This document shows positions 5,301 to 24,718 of a stretch of DNA of 26,996 bases, in pieces. Source of the DNA: Fibrobacteria bacterium. GTDB taxonomy: Bacteria; Fibrobacterota; Fibrobacteria; UBA11236. How positions within the stretch are numbered: the stretch's first letter is position 1; the number at the start of each line of letters is the position of its first letter. Made by a program: the position numbers and the translations under genes. The notes beneath the pieces are model-generated. The model made no database searches. It was given only the letters and a program-made list of their open reading frames with translations, and was not told the origin of the DNA. The stretch lies in the NCBI GenBank assembly GCA_041746255.1, contig JBGTHM010000080.1:1-26996 (forward strand). The letters are read 5' to 3'.

Positions 5301-6352
5301 GTATCGCCGGGAAAGACATTGTAGGCGGGAAAAGCGCCGTCGGGGTTGGTGTAACCTCGAAGGTCGTCATCGGCGGGGCGGAAATCCCAGAGGGTTAGGG
5401 AGTCGCCGAAGGGGGCCATTTCTACATTTGAAGGATGCAGAAAAGACTCCGAAGCCGGATAATTATACCCGGCCCAGGTATTGAATCGGACATTTCCTAA
5501 TCGCGAACCCCCTCCGTCATAGTCGCTGAAAGTCATGGTAAATTTTTGAGCCCCCCCGGGTAGCCGATTATCAACGGGGGGATGGGCGAAAATATTATTG
5601 ACGAATATTCGAACTCCGGTAAAATTCCCATTCAACTGAAATTGCATTCGATTTACGGTGTTCTGATGCATCTCGATTTTTCCAGCGGTTTTACCGGCAA
5701 ACAAACCCGGGAAATTAAAATGGTTATTGACTAGAACGACGTCCTTAGCCGTGAAATCGATTTTAGCCGCAGCCCCACCTTGGTTGGCGACGATATAGCT
5801 CCGTCGAATTTCGATGCGGGAATCGGTATCGCCGCTATTCCAGGATAAAAACACGGAGTTGAATCGGTCCCCGAATATTTGGCAAGAGTCGATGAGGAGA
5901 TTGCGGTTGGGGCTGCCAGTAGCTGTTTCTATAAACTGGGCAGCTTCATTCACGGCCCGAAAGGCCAATCCCCGGAACACCACGGGGGCATTGATATTTT
6001 CCAGCTTGAATAATTTTCCGGTATATTCCACCACCTGTGCGTTCGGTTCAAATCTTTCGAAAATCAAACTATCGGCGTTGAGCCCGGCCAGATTGAAGGC
6101 GCCGACATCCGCATAGGTTTTGAAGCGCACCACATGGATGCCTCCGGGAGCGGCGCTGGCTATTTGGGTGGCGATTTGAGTAAGGCGGCCGGGCCCGTCA
6201 ACGAGATAAGTAGCAGCGAAGCCGGATCGAGGAAGGAATAGCGCAATTGTGAAAAAGAGGCCCAACAACCCTCGCCCGGCCTGGGAAAGGTTTGTTTTGG
6301 GTTTACTGCAAAATAGGCCAGCCACGTCCATGGGTCCAGGAAAATTAACCAA
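2315..6352 (-). CDS. Large secreted protein with T9SS/Por-type (FlgD-Ig-like) C-terminal sorting domain
   Basis: 1345-aa ORF with signal peptide (LLGLFFTIALFLPRSGFAA), N-terminal beta-helix-like repeats and an LEKGWNIISNP motif. The C-terminus FMLAPNAPNPFSRQTRISFSIP...LDILDMTGKIV...SGRYISRL matches the secretion-system CTD consensus. Start uncertain (TTG 6352 or ATG 6331). Confidence 0.85.
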   Translation of the reverse strand: MVNFPGPMDVAGLFCSKPKTNLSQAGRGLLGLFFTIALFLPRSGFAATYLVDGPGRLTQIATQIASAAPGGIHVVRFKTYADVGAFNLAGLNADSLIFERFEPNAQVVEYTGKLFKLENINAPVVFRGLAFRAVNEAAQFIETATGSPNRNLLIDSCQIFGDRFNSVFLSWNSGDTDSRIEIRRSYIVANQGGAAAKIDFTAKDVVLVNNHFNFPGLFAGKTAGKIEMHQNTVNRMQFQLNGNFTGVRIFVNNIFAHPPVDNRLPGGAQKFTMTFSDYDGGGSRLGNVRFNTWAGYNYPASESFLHPSNVEMAPFGDSLTLWDFRPADDDLRGYTNPDGAFPAYNVFPGDTLLAKRLAPKDSLVLRFPSALIPRSLQATYAIRAYPSALDSTRTFWLQDTALQISGPVAINSVTFPEADPQGAPLLFSQTENTFTPQTPGPLGSLVFTNASAAARIFIPAFAGQNTPRGSNITPSGLPSETSVQFDQITRAGITTLSPPESEQGMKRIRQISRNQNPLGVALTTNAEGSESIRIGLAQSDATQPWLADSLAWRLEENPTLAVKDSVDQWWGTFPFAQTLQALLMERLALGSGYDTLHLPQGHAVLSKSVAGHQLQIDSTLQIDLAEHPHLGALSQPFTSRWPGRAEADSLQVRLKKTHPRQAAFFIDAKTAIPLIALHEDSSTVTVALSPTDSGKVLALARKFLVPSGIKTDIAIGADSALGLLSSQPGNLLLDSLFTPVDFKTDTLRLLAKRDISQDNLKLQDPYTLVLSGLAPNRSELVKAYVQRNGTWVKQNLTFAGKTYRIDMQAQDQAVLAVETLLATDTLPVYPQSQAEIQVANNRLTLTPVLSQEEKSRLKAYFPEITVILPNGQVEVRTPSGIPGDSAYTLDLPEGLVLYRLGYQSYSDVISWDTTAVPVPVSVGAFRDAVNAVAPKYPERVKSLVGFPHTVELGGGVLAALTKEQAAQSNAKEWQGEWKALPNNANLTKGKGYLLAIPAELKASLATTYQWMVGADTLALEKGWNIISNPTPIPFSDADIQLDPALVSYFQGLIWEGSGTSAQPVWSQADTLQPFTGYAVHAEAPTSLVFNPIAAALAKKVAPKQTAGFNGFTMSLTFSTGGRSQLTIHEGRSHRPSPAIPFFREGFRAAWNSGRAATTLSVEDIASLDNSFTVHVPRTGEVKIQAQPVSGKQKGLTAALWDPAGASLTPLENEILIPLAQGAHTFRILSVPSGSFQQLQKTLLADHAFSFMLAPNAPNPFSRQTRISFSIPHAEGPYHAITLDILDMTGKIVYQHQWKNLGPGKHSHMLETGNWTSGRYISRLTGRTASGTKVLQRPMLHLKELP

Positions 6353-6486
6353 AATGGGTGTTTATGGCTCGATTATTAAGGGGGAAATGCCATTTTCTTG
6401 ACCCTACTCCTCAAAATGCCTGTGCCCGGGCTTGGGGTATCCAGGATGGGGTGAATGCGTTCACAAATCCTCGGAATTTTTCCCTG

Positions 6487-6512
6487 CGAACTTAGCATTA
6501 ATGATAAGTTCG
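6487..6512. repeat. 26-bp imperfect palindrome, copy 1 (CGAACTTAGCATTAATGATAAGTTCG)
   Basis: 12-bp arms with one mismatch around a central TA. 25/26 identical to the reverse complement of 9959-9984. Confidence 0.9.
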
Positions 6513-6744
6513 GTGATCGGAATTCCGGACTGAAATTGGGAACAAACCAGGATGGTCTCTGGACCCGACGCATACCTCCCGTTCGGATTTATTTTGAAAG
6601 GCTTTTACCCCCGCTACCCCGTATAACCTTTTATTTTACCCTTTTCTATAAATTTGTGTTACAAATAATTCGTCTCTGAATAAAAGCAGAAGCATACAAA
6701 AGTAAATCCGATATGCTATTTTTAAGCACACGGAAAATTTGAAG

Positions 6745-7191
6745 ATGTTTACTTTCGATAAACTTTGGGAAACGCACCCTGCCAGAAAAGGTGATATATA
6801 TCCTTGTTCTGAACCATCCGGTGATCCGCATTTTGCAAACCAATGTGCTATTCGGATGGCCGTTTGTCTTTCGGCATCTGGAGTGGATTTTACAAAAGAA
6901 AAATTAGCCCATTGCTGGCAACACGCAACGAAGGATGCCCATGTTTTACGCGCTCAAGAACTTGCGATTTGGATGGCAGCTACTCCGGCTATTTTCGGAA
7001 CAGTCGAAAAGAAAAAATCCGTGACTTCATCGGACTATAAGGACAGAAAAGGATTGGTTTTTTTCATGAATTTCTGGGGTCCGGGTAATCAGGGCGATCA
7101 CATTGATCTTTGGAATAATTCAGCAATGACACGAGGCGATCCCGAATATTTTTCACTCTCGTATGAGGTCTGGTTCTGGGATATTGTTTAA
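6745..7191 (+). CDS. tae4: Type VI secretion amidase effector, Tae4 family (NlpC/P60-like peptidoglycan amidase)
   Basis: Catalytic motifs NQCAIRM (Cys) and GDHIDLWN (His), C-terminal EVWFW and ~150-aa size all fit Tae4. No signal peptide. Alternative TTG start at 6739. Confidence 0.85.
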   Translation: MFTFDKLWETHPARKGDIYPCSEPSGDPHFANQCAIRMAVCLSASGVDFTKEKLAHCWQHATKDAHVLRAQELAIWMAATPAIFGTVEKKKSVTSSDYKDRKGLVFFMNFWGPGNQGDHIDLWNNSAMTRGDPEYFSLSYEVWFWDIV

Positions 7192-7812
7192 GCTATCGCT
7201 GGAATAAAAAATTCCATTCGGGCCAATTTTTCTCCAAATACCCTCAATTTTTATCTCTACCCACTTATCCCGGTTTGGCCTTATTTCATTGGCTAAATAC
7301 TCCGGGGAAACAACAACTTTTCCAGTTTGATTTATGAAACCCCAGTAGCCGCCATGGACTTCCATCGCAAATTTTTCTTCTACCATTTTGCAGCCCGTGC
7401 AAAAGGCGGCTAGTGGCGCGTAAAAGGGTAGTGTATAGTCGAATACGGGGTCGATAACCACAAGTCCCGTGCTATCATGAAACCCTACTTTTCCATTTCG
7501 GATAAATCGTGCCATCCCTCGATAATAATAGTCCGGGCCATTATCATATACAAGGGAATGAAATAACTTCCGTCCTTTTGAATCGATATAATACCATTGA
7601 TTCGAGGAGTCCAATACTGTGGCAATGCAGTGTTTTGTAAATGGGTTTGCGACCCAATATTGGGGTTCTATCGTAGGTTGGTTTTTGGTTTTATATCCCC
7701 ACATACCGTTTGAATCTTGGTAAGGATTCATCTCTGGACAAATTTTATGTGCGCATCCCCACAAAAAAGCGATTGAAAATAGAAATAGCAGGTAATTGAA
7801 GATTCTAATCAT
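7153..7812 (-). CDS. WG-repeat (KWG-type) lipoprotein, candidate immunity protein
   Basis: Lipobox FLWG-C after a hydrophobic stretch. Repeats NGMWGYK, WYYIDSKG, NGKVGFHDSTG, YWGFINQTG. Lies directly downstream of the Hcp fusion on the same strand. Confidence 0.85.
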   Translation of the reverse strand: MIRIFNYLLFLFSIAFLWGCAHKICPEMNPYQDSNGMWGYKTKNQPTIEPQYWVANPFTKHCIATVLDSSNQWYYIDSKGRKLFHSLVYDNGPDYYYRGMARFIRNGKVGFHDSTGLVVIDPVFDYTLPFYAPLAAFCTGCKMVEEKFAMEVHGGYWGFINQTGKVVVSPEYLANEIRPNRDKWVEIKIEGIWRKIGPNGIFYSSDSLNNIPEPDLIRE

Positions 7813-7859: not shown

Positions 7860-9815
7860 CTAAATTCTTTCAGAGACGATATTGAGTTTATGCTTTTTCC
7901 CCTTAATCTTCGGGATACTCACCTTTAATTTGGATCCATCCAATATTACAGCTGTAAAATAATTTAAAGGATTAATTTTGATACTGATGCACCCATCGGC
8001 ATCTGAGATAGACCGTTCTTTCTCTGTACCATTTTCAAATATTTGTATTTGGCAATTTGGGATGGGAGTGTTAAAAGGCGTGCAATAACGAATCGTAATT
8101 TCTTTGAGAGCATCAAGATTAATTTGTCGGTCCGATTCCACCACCAATCCATCATAAAATGCGCACCCAAATCCCTCGGTCCGCCGCTCTCCCGCCTTCT
8201 TCACCTGCCCCTGGCACGGACCGGTATTCCCGCGCTTGCAGGGGTACTCCACCGGAAAGGTCTGGCTCGATTTCACCAACAATACCGTTACCCGCCGATT
8301 CGCCTCGCTCCTATCTTCCGTCACCTCTACCCGGTTGAACTCGCTGCAACCCATATGCGGCTGCCCGTCCACCTTGTCAAAATATTTCGCCTTCAAGCCC
8401 AGATCCTTGACTTCCGGCACTGCGTCGATAAACCCCGTAAACAACGCCTCACGCGTCTTCGGCCCCGCAATTCCATCGGCCTTAAGACCCTGCGACTCCT
8501 GAAACCCCTTCACCGCCCATTGCGTCTTCGGACCATCCAACCCGTCTATCGCACCTGGATCATGGTCCGCATGTTTCAGAAGCGACTGCGTCGCCGCCAG
8601 GCTCCAATTTTCCTCTTTATGCAATTCCTCCCACACGCTCGGATCGCCCATCAAAAACGCATATACCGAACGGGCTCGCCGTTCCGACAGCCCCTTGTTG
8701 TAAGCCTCCTTGCCCACCGCATCCGTATGCCCGAACAAGGCCATCTTACCGTCGGGATAACTCTTCCTCCATGCCCCGATTTTCTCGCACAACTCTTTCA
8801 ACTTCGGAATCTGGTCCGGATGCAGGAAACTCGAATCGAATCCGAAAGTCACGCCCACCACCACATGCGTGTCAATAAGCGGATCCGCCATCTTATCCAC
8901 CGACTTCACGCCTTCGGGCTTGGCCCCCGAATCCAGCGGCTCCGACAACGTATGTTTGGCCGTGAAAAAATATTCCACTTCTTTGGGCGCTTCACCATCC
9001 CCGCGATAGCGAGGCTTGAATACCGGCATCTTACAAGTCGCGCGACCATTTTCGGTGAACCCGTCGGCCTTGGCGATTTGCTCCGGGCCCTTCGGGGTCT
9101 TGGCGAAAAGCACGAACTGTACTCGCTTGAGGCTTTTATGCTCCTCCGGCAATTGGCATTCCACCGATAGCGTGGCCTCTTCGTTGAAACCCACTTCCGT
9201 CGAACCCCACACGGGATTTTGCAGCAAAACCTCAACCACCTTTTCTTCTGGTTGTGGCGCGGGTTCCGCGTCGCCGTAATCGGTTTCCTCTTTGGCTTCT
9301 TCTTTGCCCGTATCCTTCAGGCTATCCCAGAAAAGGATGTAACCTTCGTCATGCAGCCAGGTCACCTTGTCATAGACCATCGCCACACGCGCCTGCAGCA
9401 ATTTCCCGCCGTCGCCGCCAAGCCTACCCAGCCGCGCCCCGCGCATCAGCGTGCGCACTTGCGTCAGACGTACGTTCTCAAGCGTATAGAGAAACACCCG
9501 TTTTTCCTTCGGTTCCTCCTCGACGCTGCCTTCCACCAAATCCCACAGCGAAATTTCCACCAGGGGTAATGTGCCGCTATGGCACAGGCATTCCATCAAT
9601 GAGGGGTAGGCTTTGTCCAGGGGCAAGGAGGCGTAAAAAGGTTCGTGGAAGCGGAGGTGACGGGTGCCGGTAAAACCGTTGCTTCGCTGTCGCAAAATGC
9701 GCACGGAGTGCGCGCCTTCCAGCAGCGGATAGCAGTTCTCACGACCGGGCAGGTCGATGGGACCGGGTAGGAATCCATTGATTCCGGCAAGGCGGATGTA
9801 GGTTTTGAGCGGCAC
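7860..9815 (-). CDS. Hcp (TssD)-like domain fused to an OmpA-like domain with an inserted peptidoglycan-binding domain
   Basis: Residues 1-~165 follow the Hcp pattern (RFHEPF...LDKAYPSLMECL...VEISLW...YTLENVRLTQV...VAMVYDKVTWLH). OmpA_C motifs FGFDSS, GHTDAVG...YNKGLSERRA and NRRV. PG_binding_1 motif DPGAIDGLDGPKTQWAVKGFQESQGLKADGIAGPKTREAL. GTG start. Confidence 0.85.
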   Translation of the reverse strand: MPLKTYIRLAGINGFLPGPIDLPGRENCYPLLEGAHSVRILRQRSNGFTGTRHLRFHEPFYASLPLDKAYPSLMECLCHSGTLPLVEISLWDLVEGSVEEEPKEKRVFLYTLENVRLTQVRTLMRGARLGRLGGDGGKLLQARVAMVYDKVTWLHDEGYILFWDSLKDTGKEEAKEETDYGDAEPAPQPEEKVVEVLLQNPVWGSTEVGFNEEATLSVECQLPEEHKSLKRVQFVLFAKTPKGPEQIAKADGFTENGRATCKMPVFKPRYRGDGEAPKEVEYFFTAKHTLSEPLDSGAKPEGVKSVDKMADPLIDTHVVVGVTFGFDSSFLHPDQIPKLKELCEKIGAWRKSYPDGKMALFGHTDAVGKEAYNKGLSERRARSVYAFLMGDPSVWEELHKEENWSLAATQSLLKHADHDPGAIDGLDGPKTQWAVKGFQESQGLKADGIAGPKTREALFTGFIDAVPEVKDLGLKAKYFDKVDGQPHMGCSEFNRVEVTEDRSEANRRVTVLLVKSSQTFPVEYPCKRGNTGPCQGQVKKAGERRTEGFGCAFYDGLVVESDRQINLDALKEITIRYCTPFNTPIPNCQIQIFENGTEKERSISDADGCISIKINPLNYFTAVILDGSKLKVSIPKIKGKKHKLNIVSERI

Positions 9816-10713: not shown

Positions 10714-11064
10714 ATGGCTATGACAAGGGAAGGCAAGGCGGAAAATTTTTTGAAAAACCTGGTCGAAAACCAAATGAATGATTTCAGGGAATTACGTGAC
10801 TTTGCGCCGAATCCAATCGTCAAAGGGTATTACGAACTCAAATTGCAAACCTTGGAATCCGCCATGCAGCGAATCAAATGCGACGTTTCCAATACTCGCA
10901 TTATCGAAACCTTTCAGGAATGCATTCAAGAATACCGCGATGAAATCAACCTCGGAATGAGCCGAAAAATCCTGGAACATTATGAAGACCGCATCGAAAC
11001 TTTACAATCGATACTCGACCGTTTTATCGGATTTTTAATGCAAACCGCCGAGGATGAAGAGTAA
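10714..11064 (+). CDS. Hypothetical helical protein with an internal duplication
   Basis: AGGAGA RBS. The stop overlaps the kinase start (TAATG). The two halves resemble each other (YYELKLQTLESAMQRI / HYEDRIETLQSILDRF). Confidence 0.75.
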   Translation: MAMTREGKAENFLKNLVENQMNDFRELRDFAPNPIVKGYYELKLQTLESAMQRIKCDVSNTRIIETFQECIQEYRDEINLGMSRKILEHYEDRIETLQSILDRFIGFLMQTAEDEE

Positions 11065-11948
11065 TGTTTCCTCTCTTCTGGGTAATCTTGCTTTTGTGCC
11101 TTTTGGTACCTGCATTGATTACCAATGTTATTTTGGCGAAGCGGCTGAAAGAGTCGCTAAAACAACGGAGTCGTTTAGAAAAGCGCCTCGACCGCGCCCT
11201 TTGCCGCACCCGCGAATATGCCCATTTACAGAGCCTGGGCAAGTCCACTTGCGGCTTGGTCCACGATCTTAAAAATCAACTTATGGCCGTATCCGGTCAT
11301 GCGGCCTTACTTTCTAAAACCGACCAGGTTGATAAGCGGGAGGCATTGGTTGAAAGGCTGAATGGTATTGTCTCTCGGGTCGAAAACTTCGCCAATAAAT
11401 TGCTGGAATTTTCCAAGTCCGTTTCTCTTCCGGATAAACACCCTTTGCGCCTAAGCGTACTTCTCCACCAATGTGTTGAATTGAATTTTCCCGGTCGCCA
11501 AGCCGACTTCCACTTTGGAGAGATTCCCGAAAATGAAGAATTAATGCAAGCGGATGCCTGCCAGCTCGACCGTGCATTCGCGAACCTCTTTCGCAATTGC
11601 CTGGAAGCCGGCGCCACCCGGGTCGAAATAGGACTTAAGGCCTCCCAGGGCAAAATACGCGTCTATATCGAAGACAATGGCCGCGGCTGCTCGCGAGAAG
11701 ATTTGCCAAGGTTGCCGATGGCTTTCTATACCACCAAAAAAAACCAGGGCGGTTCAGGCTTGGGATTAAGCGTGGCTCAGGACATCATCGAACGGCATTG
11801 TGGCGATATTCGGCTGTATTCCAAAAATTCCACGGGGGAAAACGAGACAGGCCTGATCCAGGTGGTACAATTTCAAATAGGGGACGAGACCCCTCCCTTG
11901 TCCCTCCCGCGGCGCAAGCGGAGTGATGGATACGTTCGTATGGTCTAG
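11064..11948 (+). CDS. Sensor histidine kinase (single N-terminal TM, HisKA + HATPase_c)
   Basis: H box GLVHDLKNQL, N box FANLFRNCLEA, G1 DNGRG, F box FYTTK, G2 GSGLGL. Confidence 0.93.
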   Translation: MFPLFWVILLLCLLVPALITNVILAKRLKESLKQRSRLEKRLDRALCRTREYAHLQSLGKSTCGLVHDLKNQLMAVSGHAALLSKTDQVDKREALVERLNGIVSRVENFANKLLEFSKSVSLPDKHPLRLSVLLHQCVELNFPGRQADFHFGEIPENEELMQADACQLDRAFANLFRNCLEAGATRVEIGLKASQGKIRVYIEDNGRGCSREDLPRLPMAFYTTKKNQGGSGLGLSVAQDIIERHCGDIRLYSKNSTGENETGLIQVVQFQIGDETPPLSLPRRKRSDGYVRMV

Positions 11949-11966
11949 CGCTACCCGCGCAACGGG

Positions 11967-12001
11967 GGCTCCTGGAGATCGAAAGGTTTCCGGGAGCCTT
12001 T
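11967..12001 (+). terminator. Intrinsic terminator-like hairpin after the kinase
   Basis: GGCTCCTGGAGATC-GAAA-GGTTTCCGGGAGCC: a 14-bp stem with G-U pairs that form on the + strand, followed by TTT. Lies between convergent genes. Confidence 0.65.
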
Positions 12002-12013
12002 CCTCACTTTAGG

Positions 12014-12703
12014 TCAGATTGCGCGAGAATGATCCTCAATTTTACGCCCCTTCGTCTCTTCGGCTGATTTATGCGTAAAGTTATTTTCCTTTAGGTTGAT
12101 AAATAGCGGGTGGAGCGTGTCATTAATGAAAGTTGAAAATATGGGCGGCAAATTTGGAAAGGGTTTTGCTCCATATTTTATTAAAGTCTTATCTTGCGAT
12201 GTCCGCGTGCCTAAGAGACCCACTAAAAATTCGTAATTAAGTTCCATTGCTAAAGTCCCCGAGGCTGATAATAGCCTACTCCCCAAAGTATGGTGTCTCC
12301 ATCGAGGCTCTGTAAACCATCGGCCGGCTTCCGCCACCTTTCCGAGATCCATACCAATTTCCTTCAAAGCCTGGGCGGCCACGCCAGGTGGGAAAGATGT
12401 AAAGAAGAAGGCTGATGGAAATTCCCCCAGCGGCGCCAATACCCGAACACACCCTGCAATTTGACCGTCTATTCTTCCCACGATATGGCTCGCCCATTCG
12501 TCTACTTCTTCCCAATCCCAATACTGATTGGGACCAATTTGAAAGTGCGGATGTCCGGTATATTCTAACAGCATCCTTCCCCGAAAATCCGAGAGCTCGG
12601 CCTTCCAAGGCTCCACGGGATTCCCAGCAGGTACCAAGGCTTTCTCTCCGGGTACATGGACTTCCCATACCAGGCTATCGGGCATCAATGATGGCATAGG
12701 CAT
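12014..12703 (-). CDS. GNAT-fold N-acyltransferase, LuxI/FeeM (acyl-homoserine-lactone or N-acyl amino acid synthase)-like
   Basis: Motifs LSDFRG, EEVDEWASHIV...IAGCVRVL and VAEAGRWF...RWR follow the LuxI/FeeM pattern. ATG at 12703 has a GAGGTG RBS and overlaps the upstream gene end. Confidence 0.7.
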   Translation of the reverse strand: MPMPSLMPDSLVWEVHVPGEKALVPAGNPVEPWKAELSDFRGRMLLEYTGHPHFQIGPNQYWDWEEVDEWASHIVGRIDGQIAGCVRVLAPLGEFPSAFFFTSFPPGVAAQALKEIGMDLGKVAEAGRWFTEPRWRHHTLGSRLLSASGTLAMELNYEFLVGLLGTRTSQDKTLIKYGAKPFPNLPPIFSTFINDTLHPLFINLKENNFTHKSAEETKGRKIEDHSRAI

Positions 12704-13364
12704 GTTTATCCACCTCTTCCAAAACCCCCGCCAGCATGATTCCATGCAACCGGCACGCGCAGCGAAGTCCGAATAACAGCGCTTCCCGGTCCGCTTCCGT
12801 GATTAGAATTTCCGAGAAATTCTTCTCCATCATTTGCGTATGGGCCGGATCCACCTGGGTATGCTCATTGACAAAGGACATGGCGTTCGACGGCACACCC
12901 ATTTTGACCAGCCCTTCCCCGATTTGGGAAGCGGCCGTGGCGGGCAGCATTTCCAAATGGTAGACATAACCCAAATAGCCCACCGGGTTGCGGAACAAAA
13001 TCTGGTAAACCGAAAAGGCCGTAAAGGCCTCGGTGGTTGGCAACGGCATTCCCTCCGGAATTCCGCTTACGTCTTCCCCCAAGGCCTGCAAATCGTCCAG
13101 GGCCAAGTGGTGATGGCCGAATTCGGCGGAGGCATGCCGCAGCACGCGTTTGAAAATGGCATCGTGTTCGGGATCCAGGTACGCGGCGAAAAGCGCGTAG
13201 GTTTTGGGATTTTCGCGGGTATTGTAATAAATCTCGCGTAGGAGAGCCTTATAGTGCTCCAAATCCAATTCGCCGGAAAACAGTTTGCGGAAGAATTCGG
13301 TGCGGTAGAGTTGCTGAACCTCCGATTCCCATTCCGCTCGAATAGAAGCGATATCGACTTTCAT
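12675..13364 (-). CDS. Heme-oxygenase-like diiron enzyme (iron-containing redox enzyme; PqqC/CADD/TenA fold)
   Basis: Candidate metal ligands HASAEFGH, YHLE and EHTQVDPAH (HxxxDxxH). All-helical, 229 aa, strong AAGGAAGGAG RBS. Confidence 0.85.
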   Translation of the reverse strand: MKVDIASIRAEWESEVQQLYRTEFFRKLFSGELDLEHYKALLREIYYNTRENPKTYALFAAYLDPEHDAIFKRVLRHASAEFGHHHLALDDLQALGEDVSGIPEGMPLPTTEAFTAFSVYQILFRNPVGYLGYVYHLEMLPATAASQIGEGLVKMGVPSNAMSFVNEHTQVDPAHTQMMEKNFSEILITEADREALLFGLRCACRLHGIMLAGVLEEVDKHAYAIIDAR

Positions 13365-13433: not shown

Positions 13434-13772
13434 GTGGAAAAATGGGACGTAGGCGGGAGTAAATGGGTTTAGGAAAGGAGATGGGGGAGGGTCCTCCGTC
13501 TCAGGTAAAAAAATGTCCGCTTAACCTCCGGAGGCCAACCGGGGCGCCGAAAGCTACCTTGTATGCTTGGCTTGCAAGCGAAAGGTGCTTGGGCCGTGTG
13601 GACCCGAGTTCATCAGTCCCCCGGATGTATATACCACCCAGGCCAAAACTTCCGTAAGAATCAAAAGACCCGCAGCCATCCAGACGGAACGGCCGAGTCA
13701 CTGCGCCGATCGGCACGCATCATTGATCTTCCTGGCTTTAGAATGGGAAACTAATTTGTGGAAAAGTAGTAG

Positions 13773-14306
13773 ATGAAAATGGCTCACATTCGCAACCGAA
13801 TTTTATCCACGCTCGTGGCATCTTTGATTTGCCTTTGCTTTTCCATGGGGTGCACAGAGAACCAGCAGGAAAAAGGCGCGGCGAGCCATTTGGAGCAAGT
13901 GGAGCAATCCGAAGCGTCATCGGAAGTGGAGCTGGCGGTTAAAGCTTCTGCCAAAACCGTGGCCGACCAGGATACCGTGAAGGAAATTACTTTTGAATTC
14001 GAGGATTTGGGCCGTGAGAGGGGTGCAAGTCAAGTGCGGGCGGATGGAGATACCGTGTTCTTCGAAATCTATTACGCAAAAAGCAATTGTCGGGAATATG
14101 AGTATACTTTCAGGAAGGTTGGGGATTCTTTGATAGTTCTTCATCAAGACCTTGGTATAAGGATGAAGCACACGAGGGCTCATGCAATCAAAGGCGAGAT
14201 TCACGGCCTAAGAAGTGGAAATTACCTGTTCTTCTTAAAGGACATCTATGGAAAATACAATAAGGCACCTCGAGTTCTCTTCCAAGACAGCCTGGTTGTG
14301 AAATAA
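13773..14306 (+). CDS. Putative lipoprotein, paralog 1
   Basis: Lipoprotein signal (…CFSMG-C), low-complexity linker and beta-rich C-terminal domain. About 63% identical to paralog 2 by hand alignment. Confidence 0.85.
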   Translation: MKMAHIRNRILSTLVASLICLCFSMGCTENQQEKGAASHLEQVEQSEASSEVELAVKASAKTVADQDTVKEITFEFEDLGRERGASQVRADGDTVFFEIYYAKSNCREYEYTFRKVGDSLIVLHQDLGIRMKHTRAHAIKGEIHGLRSGNYLFFLKDIYGKYNKAPRVLFQDSLVVK

Positions 14307-14610
14307 ATTTCGGTCCGCTCGAATGCCGCCACCCTCCGTCTCAGGTAAAAATGTCCGCTTAACCTCCGGAGGCCAACCGGGGCACCGAAAGCTACCTTGT
14401 ATGCTTGGCTTGCAAGCGAAAAGTGCTTGGGCCGTGTGTACCCGAGCTCATCAGTCCCCCGGATGGATATACCACCTAGGCCAGAACTCCCGTAAGAATC
14501 AAAAGGCCCGCAGCCATCCAGGCGGAACGACCGAGTCACTGCGCCGATCGGTACGAATCATTGATCTTCCTGGCTTTAGAATGAGAAACTAATTTGTGGA
14601 AAAGTAGTAG

Positions 14611-15165
14611 ATGAAAATGGCTCACATTCGCAACCGACTTTTATCCACGCTCGTGGCATCTTTGGTCTGGCTTTTCCTTTCCATAGGTTGTACGCCGAAC
14701 CAGGAAGAAAAAGGTAGCGGGAGTCTCCCGGAAGATATTGAGCAGATTGAAGCTTCATCGGAATTGGAACCGGAAGTTAAAGTCCCTGCAAAAAGCACGA
14801 TCGAACAGGATAGTTTGGAGGAAATTACTTTTGAATTTCAGGATATGCGCCCGGAGGTGACCCAAAAGGGTTGGAAAAAGAGGCCCGATCAGTTGGTTGT
14901 CAGCGGGGATACAGTGTTCTTTGAAATCTACTACGGAAAAATGGCTTGCCGGGAATATGAGTACACTTTCAGAAAGGCCGGCGATACCCTAATAGTTCTT
15001 CATCAAGACCTGGATATGTGTAAGAAAACCATTGGTTCGTATGGAATCAAAGGCGAGATTCAGGGCCTAAAAAGTGGAAATTACTTTTTCTTCATAAATC
15101 GAATCCATGCAAGATACCATACGGCGCCGCGAGTTCTCTTCCAAGACAGCCTAGTTGTGAAATAA
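14611..15165 (+). CDS. Putative lipoprotein, paralog 2
   Basis: Lipoprotein signal (…FLSIG-C). Shares GDTVFFEIYY, CREYEYTFRK, LIVLHQDL and APRVLFQDSLVVK with paralog 1. Confidence 0.85.
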   Translation: MKMAHIRNRLLSTLVASLVWLFLSIGCTPNQEEKGSGSLPEDIEQIEASSELEPEVKVPAKSTIEQDSLEEITFEFQDMRPEVTQKGWKKRPDQLVVSGDTVFFEIYYGKMACREYEYTFRKAGDTLIVLHQDLDMCKKTIGSYGIKGEIQGLKSGNYFFFINRIHARYHTAPRVLFQDSLVVK

Positions 15166-15398: not shown

Positions 15399-18300
15399 AT
15401 GCTTATGTCACGGTACTTGGCATCACTGGCGTTTTTCTGTTTTTTGCATCCGGTATATGCTGCAGATCTGCCCGCTTGCATCGATGGAATGGTTCTGCAT
15501 TCACAGGGGGAAATTATCCTGGGCGACCGGGGTAAAATACTCTCCGGTGGGGTGGGAGCCCATGGCGATATCCACATTGGAACCGGCCTCAAGGGCCACT
15601 CCAATTTCAAGGCCGGAGGGGATATTCTCGTCGCAAACAAGGTTAAAATTTTCGGCAATGCCCTTGCTGGCGGCAAAGTGGTGCTTTCGGACGGAGCGAA
15701 GGTTTTTGGAGCCATTGTAGAAGGCGAAGCATTACCTCCATGCGCCATATTCGTGGAACCCTTCACCGCTGGGAGTCAAAGCGTTCTGGTGAAATCGGGA
15801 AATTCCTTGGAACTACAGCCGGGGGACTATTCCGATTTATCCGTTCGCGGCCAGGGGCATTTACGGCTTACCTCGGGAATCTATCGCTTCAATGCCTTTT
15901 CGACGGAAGCGGGTGGGCACATACATTTGGATGCTGCAGCGGGTCCCATCCGGATCCTGGTGAAGTCAATGGAACTGGGTAGTCGAACCCGCATGCATAC
16001 CTCGGAGGACACTCTCCTGCATTCCATCGAGTTCCATTCATTGCAGGCATCCCCCATAGCGTTAGGGGCCGGCACCCATTTCCGAGGCGCCTTGGTCGCT
16101 CCCTTGGCCGAAATCAAGGTTGGGGTCGGAAGTATTCTGCGGGGCGCTTTTTGGGGAGGGCGGCTTGTCCTGGAGCCTGAGGTGAAGGTCTTTCATATTC
16201 ATGTTGGAGAAGGTCGGCAGGTGGTGGAAATCATCAGTCCCCCGGATGGATATATCACCCGGGAATATTCGGTGGGCGTAGAATGGATTGTCGATGGAGT
16301 TTCCCAAGCCACTCTGACTACCGAAGAGCTTCAGGTTGAAGGGGCTAATGAAATCATCCGCTGTGCGGGAACGGAATGTGCTCAAATTTCCGTTATTCGC
16401 GACACTCAGGCCCCGGTGGTGGTGATTACGAATCCGGGAGCGGATACCACGGTTGCTGAATCTCCTATCACCGTGGCTTATACTGTGGACGGAACTCTGC
16501 AGGATACCATCTGGGCACTGTCGGCGGGGGAAAACCTCTTGGTGGTGGAGGCTTTCGATGCGGCGGGAAACCGGGGTGTGGATTCCCTAAGGGTCAGGCT
16601 AGAGGCATTGGAGATGCTGACGGCGGTGGCCTCCGGGCCGGAAGGGGTTTTGTCATACACTTATTTTTCCTTGGATGCGCGGCAAAGCAGCTCTCCCCAG
16701 GGTACTCCCCTTCAATATCGTTGGAAACAGATAAGGGGAGAGCCGTTGGTGCTTTTCCATCCGGATCGATCGACTACGACGGGGCTGAGTCGCGGCCCGG
16801 ATATTCCGGCATTTGAATTGGAGGTACGGGATGCACTAGGCATGCTGGTCCCGGCCTTGGATACGGTGGCGATAACCGTGCGGGAAGCGGCCCACCCGGA
16901 AGAATTCCTGCAAGCCTTGCAAGCGGCGCAAAAAGTGCAGGATGGACCTTATCTCATGAGCCTTACCTCCGTGGGAGGGGAAGGAGCCTATTTTACGGCG
17001 GAGGATACACTATCCTTCAGCGGCACGGTATCGCGTGAAGACGGTCCTTTCGGCGTCATCCAATGGTTCTCCGCCTCGGCCTCCGGCGTGTTCAACCCAC
17101 AGGAGCTGGACTGGTCCGGATTGCTGGTGCCTTTATACGAGGGAGACAATCCGCTTACCTTCGTGTACTCCAAGGGGGGAAGGGTGGCGGTGGAAAGGGT
17201 GCTGGTAACCCACTCTACTGAATTGGAATTCGGAGAATTCCATCTCAGTCCGGATGTTCTGGAGGTGGGACGGCCGACGGATTTCCGGGTGCGGATCCCC
17301 ATCCAGGGCTCAGGTATCAACCGGGTAATTCTGGTGCGGTGGGGCGACTTCGAGCAGGAACTGGGTGATCTCCGGGACGATGGCGTGGGAGCGGATTCGC
17401 TGGCCGATGACGGCATATACTCGCTTGAGTTTTCGCTTACCCCCGTATCCGGCGAGGATTATTCCCTTCGCATCAAGGTGGTAGGGGATGGGGGCACGGA
17501 TTATTCCCGTATCCACTTCTTTTCGGCGCAGGAGCCGTTCTCAGACGCGGTTTATAATGAAATTCTCCAAGTCAATTCCCAAGCATCCTTCCTTTATGAT
17601 TCCCTTACGGCGGCTATAGGACGGGAGGCGGCCATGAATTTCGTGGCGGATTGGCTTATTGAACAACCCAATGTGATTGTCGCCGGAATCGGACCCGGAG
17701 GTCGGGCGATTTGTTGGCAATATGCGAGCGGAGTGCATGCCTTCATCAGCGATGCGCCGGAGGGTACGAAGGGAGGAACCAGGAAAATAAAAGTGAAGGG
17801 GCTTTCGCCATTTTTGTGGGAATTCAATGAGGTAGACAATTTTGGAGTGGTTCATGAGTTTGATGATGGCAGTGTCAGCTACAAGCCTATTCTTGGTGTT
17901 TTGAATCCCGTTGCTTATAGCGTTGATTCCTTGTTGGAAAATCGCACCTTTAGTGAAAAAAATGTTTCCATTGAAGATTGGAAGAATTGGGGCGGCTATA
18001 AAACAATAATGGTTTCCACTCATGGAAACACTTTCGGATACCAATCTCTCTCTCAAATCAGATACAAACCAACCCATGATCCCGAAAAAAATGGATCTTC
18101 TTATTGGGCCAAGCCCTACCTTTCCTTGGCAACCGGAATTGTCCTTGATCCCTTGAATAGGCCGCGCTATTGGAGCGAATTGAACTCCGGAGGTCCCTAT
18201 CCCCGCATGGTTGTTGAAGCTAGCTCCAATACTATCTGGCTCACGCCTACATTTTTCACCAAGTACAACAAGAACCTGGATGGCAGCCTTCTCTATATTT

Positions 18301-19667
18301 CCGCCTGCCGCGGCTTATATAATAATGGTCTTTGGGATGCGCTCCGCGCCAATGGCGATGATAAGATGGCGATGGTGGGCTACACGGAATACGTACTATC
18401 CGATTTTGCGAGTCAGGCTGGGAAGGTTCTCTATAAGGAGTTGACGCAAGGAACCGAATTAAAGGAGGCCATAGACTCTATCAGAGCATTCTGTTCCGGG
18501 AGCGGAGCACAATATTGTGGGGTGAGAGTAGGACGGGCCCATGACTTTTCGGATCCCGTTTCTCCGGCATTTCTGGAATGGCGCGGCAACAAGGACTACC
18601 ATCTGGTCTCCACCGACATTTATACCTGGGGAGGCAATAGGTGGGGACAACTTGGAAATGGAGAAAGGGATTTATCCAAAAATTCCGAAAACTGGACCCC
18701 GAACCGAATAATGAAAAAGGGCGGACTTAAAGTCGCAGCGGGAATTTCTAATGCACTTCTGCTTGCTGCGGATAGTTCAATCTGGTCCTGGGGCGCCAAT
18801 CATTCTGGGCAACTGGGTTTTGGTGATACCGCGACAAGAACTGTCCCGACCCAAATCCCAGGATTGGACAATGTGATAGACATATTTTCCGGCAGTGATG
18901 CCCACCACAACCTGGCATTGCTTGCGGATAGCACTTTGCGCGCATGGGGGTTTAACCGGTACGGGCAGCTTGGCGTAGGTCATATTAATGAATTCATACC
19001 GGTTCCCACGGCGGTTCACGGTTCCCGAAAATTCATACAGGTTGCGCCGGCTTTCTCCCACACCCTCGCTATAAGCGCCGACAGCACTTTATGGGCGTGG
19101 GGAACCGAGGAAAATGGTTCATTCGGAGACGGAATTGAAAGGAGTGTCACGCCGATACCTATGTCCGTGTCGTCAATGGGAAAAGTCGTACAGGTTGCAA
19201 TCGGGATTCCTTACGCACAATATGTTCTCAAAGCAGACAGTACATTATGGGCTTGGGGTACCAATTACGCCGGCAAGGTGGGCAATGGCAATTCAGATGT
19301 GCAATTTACACCCGTAGAGGTTTTGAAAAATGTAACGGAGATATCCTATCGTGATTTTCCCGTAGCCATTCGGGATGACAGTACAGTATGGACATGGGGA
19401 GATGGAGAATATTTAGGCGATGGTGTATGGACGCGTATGACACCGACCAAGGTTCCGGAAATCACGGGAGCTGTAGCCACTTCCTCAGGAAACCAATATC
19501 AGTTGATAGTAACTGCCAAGGGCGAGGTCTGGAGCTTCGGTAATAATAATGAAGGTATGCTGGGAGACGGGACTGAGGAGAGTCGTTCAAGGCCGGTCAA
19601 AGTCAAGAAGGTGACAACCGCGACATCCGTGGCGGCGGGATTCGATTCCGGGGTCGCACTGGAGTAA
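15399..19667 (+). CDS. Large secreted multidomain protein: beta-solenoid, Ig/PKD domains, DDG-motif domain, caspase/gingipain-fold-like domain, C-terminal RCC1 repeats
   Basis: Signal peptide. Solenoid end GALVAPLAEIKVG…GAFWG. Ig-like RDTQAPVVVITNP and AFDAAGNRG. PKD-like LDARQSSSPQGTPLQYRWKQ. LRDDGVGADSLADDGIYS. IMVSTHG…LLYISAC. About seven WG-N-xGQLG RCC1 repeats from ~18620. Confidence 0.88.
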   Translation: MLMSRYLASLAFFCFLHPVYAADLPACIDGMVLHSQGEIILGDRGKILSGGVGAHGDIHIGTGLKGHSNFKAGGDILVANKVKIFGNALAGGKVVLSDGAKVFGAIVEGEALPPCAIFVEPFTAGSQSVLVKSGNSLELQPGDYSDLSVRGQGHLRLTSGIYRFNAFSTEAGGHIHLDAAAGPIRILVKSMELGSRTRMHTSEDTLLHSIEFHSLQASPIALGAGTHFRGALVAPLAEIKVGVGSILRGAFWGGRLVLEPEVKVFHIHVGEGRQVVEIISPPDGYITREYSVGVEWIVDGVSQATLTTEELQVEGANEIIRCAGTECAQISVIRDTQAPVVVITNPGADTTVAESPITVAYTVDGTLQDTIWALSAGENLLVVEAFDAAGNRGVDSLRVRLEALEMLTAVASGPEGVLSYTYFSLDARQSSSPQGTPLQYRWKQIRGEPLVLFHPDRSTTTGLSRGPDIPAFELEVRDALGMLVPALDTVAITVREAAHPEEFLQALQAAQKVQDGPYLMSLTSVGGEGAYFTAEDTLSFSGTVSREDGPFGVIQWFSASASGVFNPQELDWSGLLVPLYEGDNPLTFVYSKGGRVAVERVLVTHSTELEFGEFHLSPDVLEVGRPTDFRVRIPIQGSGINRVILVRWGDFEQELGDLRDDGVGADSLADDGIYSLEFSLTPVSGEDYSLRIKVVGDGGTDYSRIHFFSAQEPFSDAVYNEILQVNSQASFLYDSLTAAIGREAAMNFVADWLIEQPNVIVAGIGPGGRAICWQYASGVHAFISDAPEGTKGGTRKIKVKGLSPFLWEFNEVDNFGVVHEFDDGSVSYKPILGVLNPVAYSVDSLLENRTFSEKNVSIEDWKNWGGYKTIMVSTHGNTFGYQSLSQIRYKPTHDPEKNGSSYWAKPYLSLATGIVLDPLNRPRYWSELNSGGPYPRMVVEASSNTIWLTPTFFTKYNKNLDGSLLYISACRGLYNNGLWDALRANGDDKMAMVGYTEYVLSDFASQAGKVLYKELTQGTELKEAIDSIRAFCSGSGAQYCGVRVGRAHDFSDPVSPAFLEWRGNKDYHLVSTDIYTWGGNRWGQLGNGERDLSKNSENWTPNRIMKKGGLKVAAGISNALLLAADSSIWSWGANHSGQLGFGDTATRTVPTQIPGLDNVIDIFSGSDAHHNLALLADSTLRAWGFNRYGQLGVGHINEFIPVPTAVHGSRKFIQVAPAFSHTLAISADSTLWAWGTEENGSFGDGIERSVTPIPMSVSSMGKVVQVAIGIPYAQYVLKADSTLWAWGTNYAGKVGNGNSDVQFTPVEVLKNVTEISYRDFPVAIRDDSTVWTWGDGEYLGDGVWTRMTPTKVPEITGAVATSSGNQYQLIVTAKGEVWSFGNNNEGMLGDGTEESRSRPVKVKKVTTATSVAAGFDSGVALE

Positions 19668-21092: not shown

Positions 21093-21794
21093 TTAGAAAT
21101 AGTTCCCGGAAACCACTTCGTTGATCATCTCAAAATATTCATTCTCGCGATTCACCAAGTCGAGGGGCTTATTGATGAACTCGTAAAAGCGGTGGCGGCT
21201 GAGCGAGGTTTTCATCAAGTCTGCGTCGCCGGCGGGGTTGCCGGTCACCATGATGAATTTCAGAAAAGGGCGGGTCCGCTTGGCGGCGTCGCATAACTCC
21301 GTTCCCGTCATGGCGGGCATCATCTCGTCGGTTAAAACCAAGACCACGTTCGAATCGGTGCGGATATATTCCAGGGCTTCCAGAGGGTTTTCGAAAGTCT
21401 TGAGATTGAAACGCTTTCCGAACTTGCGGCGGAAGATAAACAGGTTCTCTTCTTCGTCGTCCACATAGACCACCACCGGATTGGGAACTTCGTGGTGGAT
21501 GCTCGCGCTGATATGCGTCACCAGGTGATCGATGGTCTTGTAGGTGTTCATGTCCATGGGAGTGTCTTTGAAATGCTGCTGCATGTTGTACAGCAATTCA
21601 ACGTTGATGGTGAAGCCGCCGAACCGGTATTTCAATTCCTGACCCAGAATCCTGACCGTATCTTCATTGATACCCGCGTCTTCCAGAAGCGTATCGAAGG
21701 TTAGCTTCTCGACGCGAAGTTCGAACTTGGGATTTTGTATGGCGAGGTTGCTCAGGATTTCACTGAGTATTTCCAGAATACGCTCACGTGTCAT
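21093..21794 (-). CDS. Response-regulator receiver domain with an N-terminal acyl-carrier-protein-like domain
   Basis: REC motifs YVDDEEEN, VLTDEMMPAMTG, IMVTG and INKP. The N-terminal ~100 aa follow the ACP pattern (RILEILSE…DTLLEDAGINEDTVRILGQELKYRFG…KTIDHLVTHI). Confidence 0.85.
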   Translation of the reverse strand: MTRERILEILSEILSNLAIQNPKFELRVEKLTFDTLLEDAGINEDTVRILGQELKYRFGGFTINVELLYNMQQHFKDTPMDMNTYKTIDHLVTHISASIHHEVPNPVVVYVDDEEENLFIFRRKFGKRFNLKTFENPLEALEYIRTDSNVVLVLTDEMMPAMTGTELCDAAKRTRPFLKFIMVTGNPAGDADLMKTSLSRHRFYEFINKPLDLVNRENEYFEMINEVVSGNYF

Positions 21795-23127: not shown

Positions 23128-23290
23128 TTTCCATGGTCTCCCCGCTGAAAATATCTGACGGAATCAACGAGGGCAAGAAAAGAATGCCGCAAACCGGCTC
23201 GGTTAATGGAGATGCGGAAATAACCTGACCAGGTTCGGTTCGAGATTATAATTTGGGACAATGGGGTTGGTTATCCCGGAGGTTTACCGC

Positions 23291-24718
23291 ATGTCCGATA
23301 TCCATCCATTTCTGTTACAAGGTAAAGATTCGGCTTCAAACCTTATCCACTCCCTGCAAGGGCCGCTCGACAACTCTCCCCATGCGCAAGTTTACCTGGC
23401 CGAACCTGCGCAAATCGAAGCCGCCCTGGCCACCGCCGCTTCCGCGTTTCCCATCACTCGCTCCCTGCCCACCTATGCGCGCGCCGACTTGCTGGAACGG
23501 GTGCGCGCCGCGTTACGCGACCAGGCCGAAGAATTCGCCCAACTTATCACCCGCGAAACCGCCAAACCCATTCGCTATGCCCGCGCCGAAGTGGAGCGCG
23601 CCGTGGCCACCTTCACCGATGCCTGGCGCGTCTCGCTGGGCGAAAGAGGGGAGTGGCTGCCCCTGGACTGGAACCCGGCTTCGCAAGGCCGCTCCGCCCT
23701 GGTCCGGCGCGTTCCCCGTGGGCCGTTAACCGCCATAACCCCTTTCAACTTCCCCCTCAACTTAGTCGCCCATAAAATCGCCCCCGCCCTGGTGTGCGGC
23801 TGTCCGATTTTACTCAAGCCCGCGCCGCAAGCCCCCCTGACCGCCCTGCGACTGGCCAGGCTCATTCTCAGCGCCGACAGCGACCGAATCCTCCCTCCTG
23901 GGGCCTTGCAAGTGCTGCCCTGCGAAAACGACGTAGCTCAGCCCCTTATCACCGACGAGCGGGTGAAATTTTTGACCTTCACGGGAAGCGCCGCGGTAGG
24001 GTGGAAGCTGAAACACATGGCCGACAACAAACCCGCCGCCCTGGAGCTGGGAGGCAATGCGGCCGTTCTGATTGAGCCCGACGCGGACCTTAGCCATGCC
24101 GCAGAGCGATGCGCGCAAGGAGGGTTTGCTTTTGCCGGGCAGAGCTGTATTTCGGTACAACGGATTTATGTGCATCAGTCGGTCGGCGAAGAGTTTGCGC
24201 GCCTCCTGGTGGAAAAAACCCGGGCGCTTAAAGTGGGAAACCCCCTTGAAGACGACACGGAAGTGGGGCCGATGATTAGCATAGCCGAAGCCGAGCGAGC
24301 CGAAAGTTGGGTGCGGGAAGCCGGGGGAGAGGTGCTTCTCGGGGGTGAGCGCCAGGGCGCTTATTTCCCGCCGACAATTCTCAGAAACGTGCGGGAAAAT
24401 GCCAAGGTTATTTGTGAAGAGATATTTGCACCTGTAGTAATTATCGAGACTTACGATGATTTCGCCTATGCTTTGGCCCGCGCGGATTCCACCCGCTATG
24501 GCTTGCAGGCGGGACTGTTCACCCATGACCAAGGCAAGGTGGCGCAAGCCTTTTCTGCCCTGGAAGTCGGCGCCCTGGTGGTGAACGATGTGCCGACTTA
24601 TCGCGCGGACGTCATGCCGTATGGGGGCGTGAAAGATTCCGGCCTCGGGCGCGAAGGGGTGGCCTATGCCCTCGAAGAAATGACCGTGCGCAAAACCCTG
24701 GTTTATGCCGGTTTTTAG
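23291..24718 (+). CDS. NAD(P)-dependent aldehyde dehydrogenase
   Basis: ITPFNFPLNL, FTGS, LELGGN (catalytic Glu), GQSCIS (catalytic Cys), EEIFAP and PYGGVKDSGLGREG. ATG 23291 has a GGAGG RBS; the ORF track start is 23261. Confidence 0.95.
   Translation: MSDIHPFLLQGKDSASNLIHSLQGPLDNSPHAQVYLAEPAQIEAALATAASAFPITRSLPTYARADLLERVRAALRDQAEEFAQLITRETAKPIRYARAEVERAVATFTDAWRVSLGERGEWLPLDWNPASQGRSALVRRVPRGPLTAITPFNFPLNLVAHKIAPALVCGCPILLKPAPQAPLTALRLARLILSADSDRILPPGALQVLPCENDVAQPLITDERVKFLTFTGSAAVGWKLKHMADNKPAALELGGNAAVLIEPDADLSHAAERCAQGGFAFAGQSCISVQRIYVHQSVGEEFARLLVEKTRALKVGNPLEDDTEVGPMISIAEAERAESWVREAGGEVLLGGERQGAYFPPTILRNVRENAKVICEEIFAPVVIIETYDDFAYALARADSTRYGLQAGLFTHDQGKVAQAFSALEVGALVVNDVPTYRADVMPYGGVKDSGLGREGVAYALEEMTVRKTLVYAGF

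Follow-up and report, generated by a model that had tools for sequence, protein, structure and literature searches.

The window analysed here is a stretch of 26,996 nucleotides from a Fibrobacteria bacterium (GenBank assembly GCA_041746255.1, contig JBGTHM010000080.1). Its reverse strand carries two overlapping genes, one for a heme-oxygenase-like diiron oxidase (HDO) and one for a GNAT protein that resembles the LuxI/FeeM-type N-acyl (amino acid) synthases (NAS). We propose, with a probability of about 0.55, that these genes form a self-sufficient two-enzyme unit that makes an oxidatively tailored N-acyl amino acid and is embedded in signalling circuitry. An earlier note on this DNA had described the two genes as a minimal pathway to an oxidatively tailored N-acyl amide, possibly sensed through a neighbouring histidine kinase; all three genes lie where it had placed them, with the HDO and GNAT genes overlapping and the kinase gene convergent on the pair. 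The enzymatic half of that interpretation is strongly supported, and the signalling half is plausible.

In the proposed pathway, the GNAT protein would acylate the amino group of an amino acid or a related amine, with acyl-ACP or acyl-CoA as the fatty acyl donor, as its family and fold suggest. The HDO would perform an O2-dependent tailoring of the lipoamino acid, for example α,β-desaturation, oxidative decarboxylation to an enamide, or hydroxylation. This role is proposed because of the analogy with the chemistry of UndA and BesC and with NAS pathways that include another oxidase (TyzC; the Fee cluster). The product would most likely be amphiphilic and either exported or membrane-active. Its production would be embedded in signalling, here through a convergent short kinase and a receiver protein, and in paralogous clusters through a GAF kinase and PilZ-fused synthases; the kinase may either sense the product or only control its synthesis.

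The oxidase and the synthase of the pair

The HDO gene (12675..13364, reverse strand) is the first gene of the pair and encodes a protein of 229 aa, which matches the Pfam family PF14518 (Haem_oxygenas_2) with a score of 71.1 bits (cut-off 28.9). A word-indexed search returned 33 relatives, mostly with ~50% identity, and 19 of these were aligned with preference for longer contigs and full length (alignment A2). Residues E81, H84, E138, H168, D172 and H175 are invariant across all 19 sequences and follow the spacing ExxH...E...HxxxDxxH, giving a 3-His/3-carboxylate site. We take these six residues to be the metal ligands, by analogy with UndA and CADD. In a profile search against PDB sequences, the best matches were 3dde (1.3e-34), MboA (2.6e-10), BesC (1.2e-4) and 4-aminobenzoate synthase (1.4e-3), and the ligand motifs line up with those of 3dde and BesC. 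The AlphaFold2 (AF2) model of the protein is all-helical (pLDDT 93.6), and Foldseek placed 3dde first (TM 0.87), then CADD (0.80), TenA proteins, BesC (0.70) and UndA (0.75-0.78). The nearest structure, 3dde, is Sden_3740, a structural-genomics protein without known function, and no close relative with a characterised function was found among the fold and profile matches. By family, fold and ligand set, the protein is a bona fide heme-oxygenase-like diiron oxidase, with the full candidate ligand set that the earlier note had read in it, and it is predicted from sequence and model to bind metal and activate O2.

The GNAT gene (12014..12703, reverse strand) likewise encodes 229 aa from its likely start, an ATG at 12703 with a purine-rich GGAAGAGGTGG stretch directly upstream. 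An alternative start at 12697 corresponds to the beginning of a 227-aa entry in the protein collection (P0003), and the longest open reading frame (ORF) in the ORF list spans 12014-12745. Depending on the start, the gene overlaps the HDO gene by 23-29 nt, or by 71 nt with the longest ORF; by its coordinates, the orthologous pair in a genome of the same genus (G001) overlaps by 23 nt. In Pfam, the window GNAT shows sub-threshold matches to Acetyltransf_1 (18.8 bits, cut-off 20.7) and Acetyltransf_5 (PF13444; 15.3 bits, cut-off 22.4) and no match to FeeM (PF21926) or Autoind_synth (PF00765), and no NCBIfam model matched it, including OlsB and TIGR03694. Because of these sub-threshold scores, the label "LuxI/FeeM-like" rests on family-level and structural evidence.

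At the family level, a word-indexed search with the window GNAT found one non-self homolog (P0004, 52% identity). An exhaustive HMMER search with a profile of three sequences (the window GNAT, its G001 ortholog and a G001 paralog) retrieved 250 cluster representatives at E <= 1e-3, with 154 at E <= 1e-10 and seven at E <= 1e-30. Alignment A3 combines the window protein and P0004 with 71 of the 150 listed hits, all of ~200-270 aa, giving 73 sequences. Scanned singly (E <= 0.01), its members matched Acetyltransf_5 in 64 of 73 cases, Acetyltransf_1 in 40, FeeM in 25 and Autoind_synth in eight. Among NCBIfam models at the same threshold, TIGR03694 (PEP-CTERM/exosortase-associated acyltransferase) was matched by 19 members, none of them listed above its cut-off, the TraI model of acyl-homoserine lactone (AHL) synthases by four and OlsB by one. 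The G001 paralog exceeds the Acetyltransf_5 cut-off with 23.3 bits.

The ten best Foldseek matches of the GNAT model (AF2, pLDDT 89) are AHL synthases (TofI, RpaI, MesI, BjaI, LasI) and FeeM. Structural superposition with VIA-align gave Z scores of 18.7 for TofI (174 residues aligned), 17.4 for RpaI (188), 16.9 for LasI (178), 16.2-16.4 for BjaI and 15.8 for FeeM (2g0b; 170 residues, rmsd 2.9). The best small N-acetyltransferases reached Z 16.3-16.5, but over 142-145 residues only, and the aligned span was 165-193 residues with AHL synthases and FeeM versus 137-157 with the nearest-scoring small N-acetyltransferases. Relative to ordinary GNATs, the advantage in Z is modest and that in coverage clear. 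The Pfam counts and the structural coverage support a grouping of the protein with LuxI/FeeM-type acyl-amide synthases and not with ordinary acetyltransferases, the grouping that the earlier note had named as fatal to its view; acyl transfer is predicted from this sequence and model evidence. The LuxI/FeeM-like character claimed in that note, which had singled out LuxI, FeeM and OlsB for comparison, agrees with these results.

The window family also displays the motif pattern FRGR, DxxxxD, R-x-L-P and E-x-x-R, which we take to be equivalent to the LuxI motifs. A profile alignment (hhalign) of A3 with 20 FeeM-type HDO partners from other loci gave a probability of 98.45% (E 4e-15) at 13% identity. 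Residue E125 of the GNAT is nearly invariant in A3, and the FeeM-type partners have no Glu at the corresponding column of this alignment. The catalytic glutamate is given as Glu95 in FeeM and Glu103 in Nas354 in the available text of the published work (PMC4897644).

Conservation, fusion and distribution of the unit

With A2 as query, a search of one genome per species identified 36 HDO loci, from Fibrobacteria/Fibrobacteres bins, several groups of Pseudomonadota (including Marinicaulis, Parvularculaceae, Lysobacterales, Pseudomonadales and Burkholderiales) and one Polyangiales bin; two outliers with 27% identity come from a cyanobacterium and an acidobacterium. Two G001 duplicates and a 1.7-kb contig were set aside, and in the remaining 33 loci 112 neighbours were scanned. 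A FeeM/Acetyltransf_5 protein directly adjoins the HDO gene in 29 of the 33 loci, two of these proteins scoring under the FeeM cut-off. In one more locus (L037), a profile of the FeeM-type partners detected an NAS directly downstream of the HDO gene (108 bits), which brings the total to 30/33. An NAS is missing from three loci: in one, the contig begins within the HDO gene, and the other two are the outliers, whose HDO genes lie beside radical-SAM/SPASM genes. The earlier note had made its reading depend on conservation of the pair; the pairing is not due to chance, and its conservation across phyla is strongly supported.

The architecture of the unit varies. In the nine Fibrobacteria/Fibrobacteres loci L009-L017, the partners are proteins of 500-640 aa with a C-terminal FeeM domain, most of them with a PilZ match as well, and they often flank the HDO gene on both sides. 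Another contig of the window genome encodes a GAF kinase, a 523-aa FeeM protein, an HDO and a 600-aa PilZ-FeeM protein. In G001, locus L006 (contig C175; 3-5464, reverse strand, and 5646-7304, forward strand) holds an A3-type GNAT, an HDO, a 537-aa FeeM-domain protein, another HDO and a PilZ-FeeM protein truncated at the end of the contig, so that three synthases and two oxidases follow one another; a divergent GAF kinase accompanies them. Gene order is not fixed: the GNAT precedes the HDO in L006 and many proteobacterial loci, and the HDO comes first in the window. Lipid-related neighbours are common at HDO loci and include fatty-acid desaturase, KAS III, acyl reductase, aldehyde dehydrogenase and MatE proteins.

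Several observations on individual loci may be added here. The window encodes an aldehyde dehydrogenase with a weak LuxC-like match (23261-24718, forward strand) ~10 kb from the pair. In L022, L027 and L039, an aldehyde dehydrogenase gene is likewise no more than two genes away from the HDO-NAS pair; none lies beside the G001 pair, so the one in the window is probably there by coincidence. In a genome of a related genus (G006, contig C182, 3-941; L003/L048), a GNAT fragment precedes an HDO fragment, and both contain in-frame stops (TGA and TAG in the GNAT part, TAG in the HDO part); this may be a decaying copy of the pair or reflect a poor assembly (84% complete, 900 contigs). The G001 contigs L007/L008 are labelled "uncultured Bifidobacteriales bacterium", which looks inconsistent with their Fibrobacteria/Fibrobacteres relatives.

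Natural fusions join the two activities in single proteins. Among the best 150 of the 250 GNAT-profile hits, 14 proteins have at least 280 aa, and seven of the 14 give a match to the HDO profile as well (E 6e-15 to 3e-7). The order is HDO-GNAT in five (P0041, P0059, P0109, P0113 and P0128) and the reverse in one (P0047), and one is a partial fusion (P0077). The fusions keep the HDO motifs HAxxExxHH, YEIE and HxxxDxGHT. When metagenomes were scanned with an alignment of the five HDO-GNAT fusions, 436 stretches matched and 240 of them encode relatives; nearly all of the 80 fusion loci kept from these span residues ~7-480 of 483. Fused HDO/GNAT proteins are common in metagenomes, and a metagenome contig search with the GNAT protein P0038 as a single query returned no match. 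The fusions provide Rosetta-stone evidence that the HDO and GNAT activities belong together, and they imply that the unit can do without a further dedicated enzyme. Thus, the view that the two genes constitute one minimal pathway is strongly supported by pairing across phyla and by natural fusions.

Within its own phylum, the unit is patchy. The HDO family was found in 18 of 61 related genomes (a tally that takes in one genome flagged as unpublished, G021), all in one family-level group, namely the window genome and 17 of 31 others; it was absent from one small-genome genus (0/12) and from other families (0/29). Of the 296 genomes of the phylum, the window genome and G001 alone have strong A3-type GNAT matches, and 13 further genomes match at 49 bits or less. 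Between the window and G001, protein identity is 91% for the receiver protein, 78% for the HDO, 69% for the kinase, 62% for a DUF748 protein, 61% for a small protein and 52% for the GNAT, which makes the GNAT the fastest-changing gene of the block.

Signalling genes and other features of the window

The gene facing the pair (11064..11948, forward strand) encodes a short membrane-anchored histidine kinase of 294 aa with a HATPase_c domain (66 bits), a HisKA match of 22.8 bits (under the cut-off of 26.9) and a visible H-box, VHDLKNQL. NCBIfam alignments to the AtoS and ZraS kinases cover residues 13-260. The protein has a single N-terminal hydrophobic helix (residues 7-25) and is without an extracytoplasmic domain. 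The gene converges on the GNAT gene across a gap of 65 nt and is therefore not co-transcribed with the pair; its G001 ortholog occupies the same position. Immediately upstream, an ORF (10714..11064, forward strand) encodes a 116-aa protein without a known family, whose stop overlaps the kinase start (ATGA). No Pfam family matched this protein over its cut-off, and its ortholog of 124 aa is kept with the kinase in G001.

A protein of 233 aa with a C-terminal receiver domain (21093..21794, reverse strand; Response_reg 42.3 bits) is a candidate cognate regulator. Its N-terminal ~100 aa have no Pfam match, and it contains no DNA-binding output domain. In G001, the gene for its ortholog is the immediate upstream neighbour of the HDO gene; in the window, the two are separated by ~7.7 kb that contain a pair of duplicated lipoprotein-like genes and an RCC1-repeat gene. 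The latter (15399-19667, forward strand) encodes a 1422-aa protein with C-terminal RCC1-like repeats, and G001 is without this ~7.7-kb block. A LuxR-type receptor is missing, as the earlier note had observed for the window: a search for the LuxR autoinducer-binding domain PF03472 gave no hit anywhere in the 4.59-Mb genome (marker-gene completeness 100%), with a positive E. coli control.

Kinases, counted as HisKA and/or HATPase_c proteins within two genes of the HDO gene, are present in 14 of the 33 HDO loci and fall into three architectures. Five Fibrobacteria/Fibrobacteres loci (L010, L011, L013, L015 and L017) have a divergent GAF kinase of 718-722 aa, and a sixth has an ORF of matching size. 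A divergent kinase of 443-485 aa occurs in eight loci (from Marinicaulis, Parvularculaceae and an unclassified Pseudomonadota bin) and in L039; a simple hydropathy scan of seven of these nine kinases showed 5-7 hydrophobic segments in their N-terminal halves. The third kind, short and with one helix, is that of the window and G001. Paralogy of the window kinase with the GAF kinase of the sister cluster, which would point to duplication of the whole module, was considered and rejected, as the GAF kinase was absent among 25 kinase matches at E <= 1e-8.

Other regulatory connections accompany the synthases. Some are fused to PilZ or cyclic nucleotide (cNMP)-binding domains, and an adjacent gene occasionally encodes an adenylate cyclase or a GGDEF-EAL protein. 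For the fused form, 78 neighbours from 20 loci were scanned, and they include a winged-helix (Trans_reg_C)-TPR regulator in five of 20 loci, extracytoplasmic function (ECF) sigma factors in four and TonB-type receptors in five. In the metagenome loci L078, L081, L094, L099 and L132, the fused HDO-GNAT gene adjoins a 650-680-aa OmpR-type winged-helix and TPR protein, often with an ECF sigma factor nearby. This winged-helix-TPR protein is a candidate receptor for the product in the fused-form lineage. The HDO-NAS unit appears to be habitually wired to signal transduction, with partners that differ by lineage, and a role of the product as a signal sensed by the kinase is plausible. A broader and rather speculative extension is that HDO-NAS units, separate or fused, constitute a widespread, undescribed class of oxidised lipoamino-acid signals that work without LuxR through membrane or cytoplasmic receptors of each lineage's own, with the window synthase and kinase as one fast-diverging pair. 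If so, the receptors would be a kinase with 5-6 helices in Pseudomonadota, the GAF kinase in Fibrobacteria and the winged-helix-TPR regulator for the fused form.

Several points weigh against the proposed unit or its signalling part. The window GNAT itself stays under every Pfam and NCBIfam cut-off, and its subfamily is distant from the FeeM-type partners found elsewhere, so that any transfer of function from them is indirect. Conservation of the neighbourhood with kinases, which the earlier note had put forward as a check, held in part: adjacency is seen in 14/33 HDO loci and in just 2/20 fusion loci, and so is not universal. Synteny of the window kinase was seen only in G001, and its sequence indicates that it is not paralogous to the GAF kinase of the sister cluster. 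The substrate, as the earlier note had said, and likewise the oxidative reaction, the product, the metal content and the order of reactions cannot be read from sequence.

Two further features of the window concern other genes. A 300-nt repeat upstream of the HDO gene (13509-13808 and 14347-14646) accompanies the genes 13773-14306 and 14611-15165 (forward strand). The repeated unit consists of a leader and a lipoprotein-like gene for 177/184 aa without a Pfam family, the non-coding leader being the better conserved part (95%, against 81% for the 3' coding part). The genome contains two local full copies of the repeat and one 33-nt partial match within the window. A structured RNA was considered and rejected (no Rfam hit in the window; fold z-score +1.28, that is, not more stable than shuffles), as was a mobile element, given only two local full copies in the genome; we read the repeat as a local tandem duplication. 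A promoter and terminator scan of the window gave counts near shuffle expectation and defined no operon ends. Finally, the gene 7860-9815 (reverse strand) encodes a 651-aa protein with an N-terminal type VI secretion system Hcp domain (26.3 bits) followed by OmpA and peptidoglycan-binding domains, an unusual Hcp fusion.

Alternative readings and known systems

The alternative that survives best, although itself doubtful, is membrane aminolipid remodelling, in which an OlsB-like GNAT would make an envelope N-acyl lipid, the HDO would hydroxylate or desaturate it, and kinases would switch the process on under stress, with no signal involved. Acetyltransf_5, which we take to be the family of OlsB, is matched by 64 of the 73 A3 members, and one of them matches the OlsB model; however, that is just one of 73, and the window GNAT has no match. 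The desaturase, acyl-reductase and KAS III neighbours suit a lipid pathway, but no OlsA-like O-acyltransferase was seen among the 112 neighbours scanned, and MatE or MMPL exporters adjoin several units. The PilZ and cNMP domains on synthases suggest that the internal state of the cell controls them, whereas the patchy occurrence of the pair (17/31 genomes in the family, 0/12 in one genus) better fits an accessory metabolite.

An unlikely variant reverses the order of the two steps: the HDO would first make an unusual amine, amino acid or fatty-acid derivative, and the GNAT would then acylate or consume that product. Characterised HDOs use free amino acids or fatty acids, with BesC, UndA and CADD among the fold or sequence matches, and the HDO gene leads the window operon. 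This lead is not a conserved feature, however, and fusions exist in both orders; computationally, the two reaction orders are not distinguishable.

It is quite improbable that the GNAT is a true S-adenosylmethionine-dependent AHL synthase whose HDO-tailored product is sensed by a membrane kinase without LuxR. TofI, RpaI and LasI are the best structural matches, Autoind_synth and the TraI model are matched by 8/73 and 4/73 A3 members, and one source annotates a family member as "N-acyl-L-homoserine lactone synthetase". However, the window GNAT has no Autoind_synth match, FeeM, which is not an AHL synthase, shows the same fold at a similar score (Z 15.8 vs 16.3-18.7), the partners in other lineages are FeeM-type, and no LuxR-type domain occurs in the genome. 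Mere chance proximity of two genes with unrelated functions, for which the weak family scores of the window GNAT and its single close homolog in the word-indexed search could be cited, is very improbable given NAS adjacency in 30/33 loci and the gene overlap kept in G001, and is already contradicted by fusions in both orders.

The two-enzyme unit proposed here has counterparts among characterised enzymes on both sides. The window HDO has the helical heme-oxygenase-like fold and the 3-His/3-carboxylate site in common with UndA, BesC, CADD and MboA; its identity to these proteins and to 3dde is just 11-22%. To our knowledge, heme-oxygenase-like diiron oxidases (UndA, BesC, SznF, CADD) have revealed surprising chemistry each time one was characterised. 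Because the present HDO clade comes with a defined partner enzyme and with natural fusions, simple co-expression now offers a way to find its substrate. Outside subscription-only publications, no literature was found that joins an NAS, FeeM or GNAT acyltransferase with a heme-oxygenase-like diiron enzyme, and none of the characterised HDOs is reported there with an NAS partner; nor was a relevant network survey of HDOs found. The one publication that came up for NAS together with histidine kinases concerns, by its title and opening abstract, the mining of Acetobacteraceae genomes.

On the synthase side, the LuxI-type enzymes TofI (3p2h), RpaI (6wn0), LasI (1ro5) and BjaI (5w8a) are the best structural matches of the window GNAT; unlike LuxI/LuxR systems, it has no Autoind_synth match and its genome no LuxR-type receptor. 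In this phylum, a lipid signal of the cell's own making would be a novelty; the window genome shows no such receptor domain. FeeM (2g0b) has the same fold as the window GNAT, and the HDO partners in other lineages match the FeeM Pfam model, whereas the window GNAT falls in the separate subfamily A3, under the FeeM cut-off. PilZ-fused synthases flank the HDO in the second cluster of the window genome and recall Nas343 and Nas354, which make N-acyltyrosines; a cAMP-activated NAS has also been published (PMC4897644). In the published fusions, as far as the available text describes them, the NAS domain is N-terminal and PilZ C-terminal, whereas PilZ is N-terminal here, and that text mentions neither iron nor an oxygenase (PMC4897644). 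It also states that N-acyl amino acids are made by many bacteria and that their physiological role is unclear (PMC4897644). The recurrent wiring of HDO-NAS units to kinases, PilZ/cNMP domains and transcription regulators offers a concrete handle on this role.

As a pathway type, an NAS with an O2-dependent desaturase is established by the available account of the tyrazolone (tyz) cluster of M. tuberculosis, which combines an NAS with the desaturase TyzC, of the nitroreductase family, and the ThiF-like cyclase TyzB; stieleriacines, thalassotalic acids and kyonggic acids are proposed to arise from the same gene set (PMC12479983). A GH3-type ornithine-lipid pathway, in the available description, works without an HDO (PMC12493201). 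The tyz and stieleriacine systems, as described, use TyzC as oxidase together with the cyclase TyzB, whereas the window oxidase belongs to the heme-oxygenase-like diiron proteins; the neighbours scanned included neither a nitroreductase nor a ThiF-like protein, and no whole-genome search was made for either. The oxidase of the Fee cluster also differs from the HDO. Thus, what is new in the window and its relatives is the use of an HDO as the oxidase in the known theme of an NAS plus a tailoring oxidase, which probably gives an undescribed oxidised fatty-acyl amino acid.

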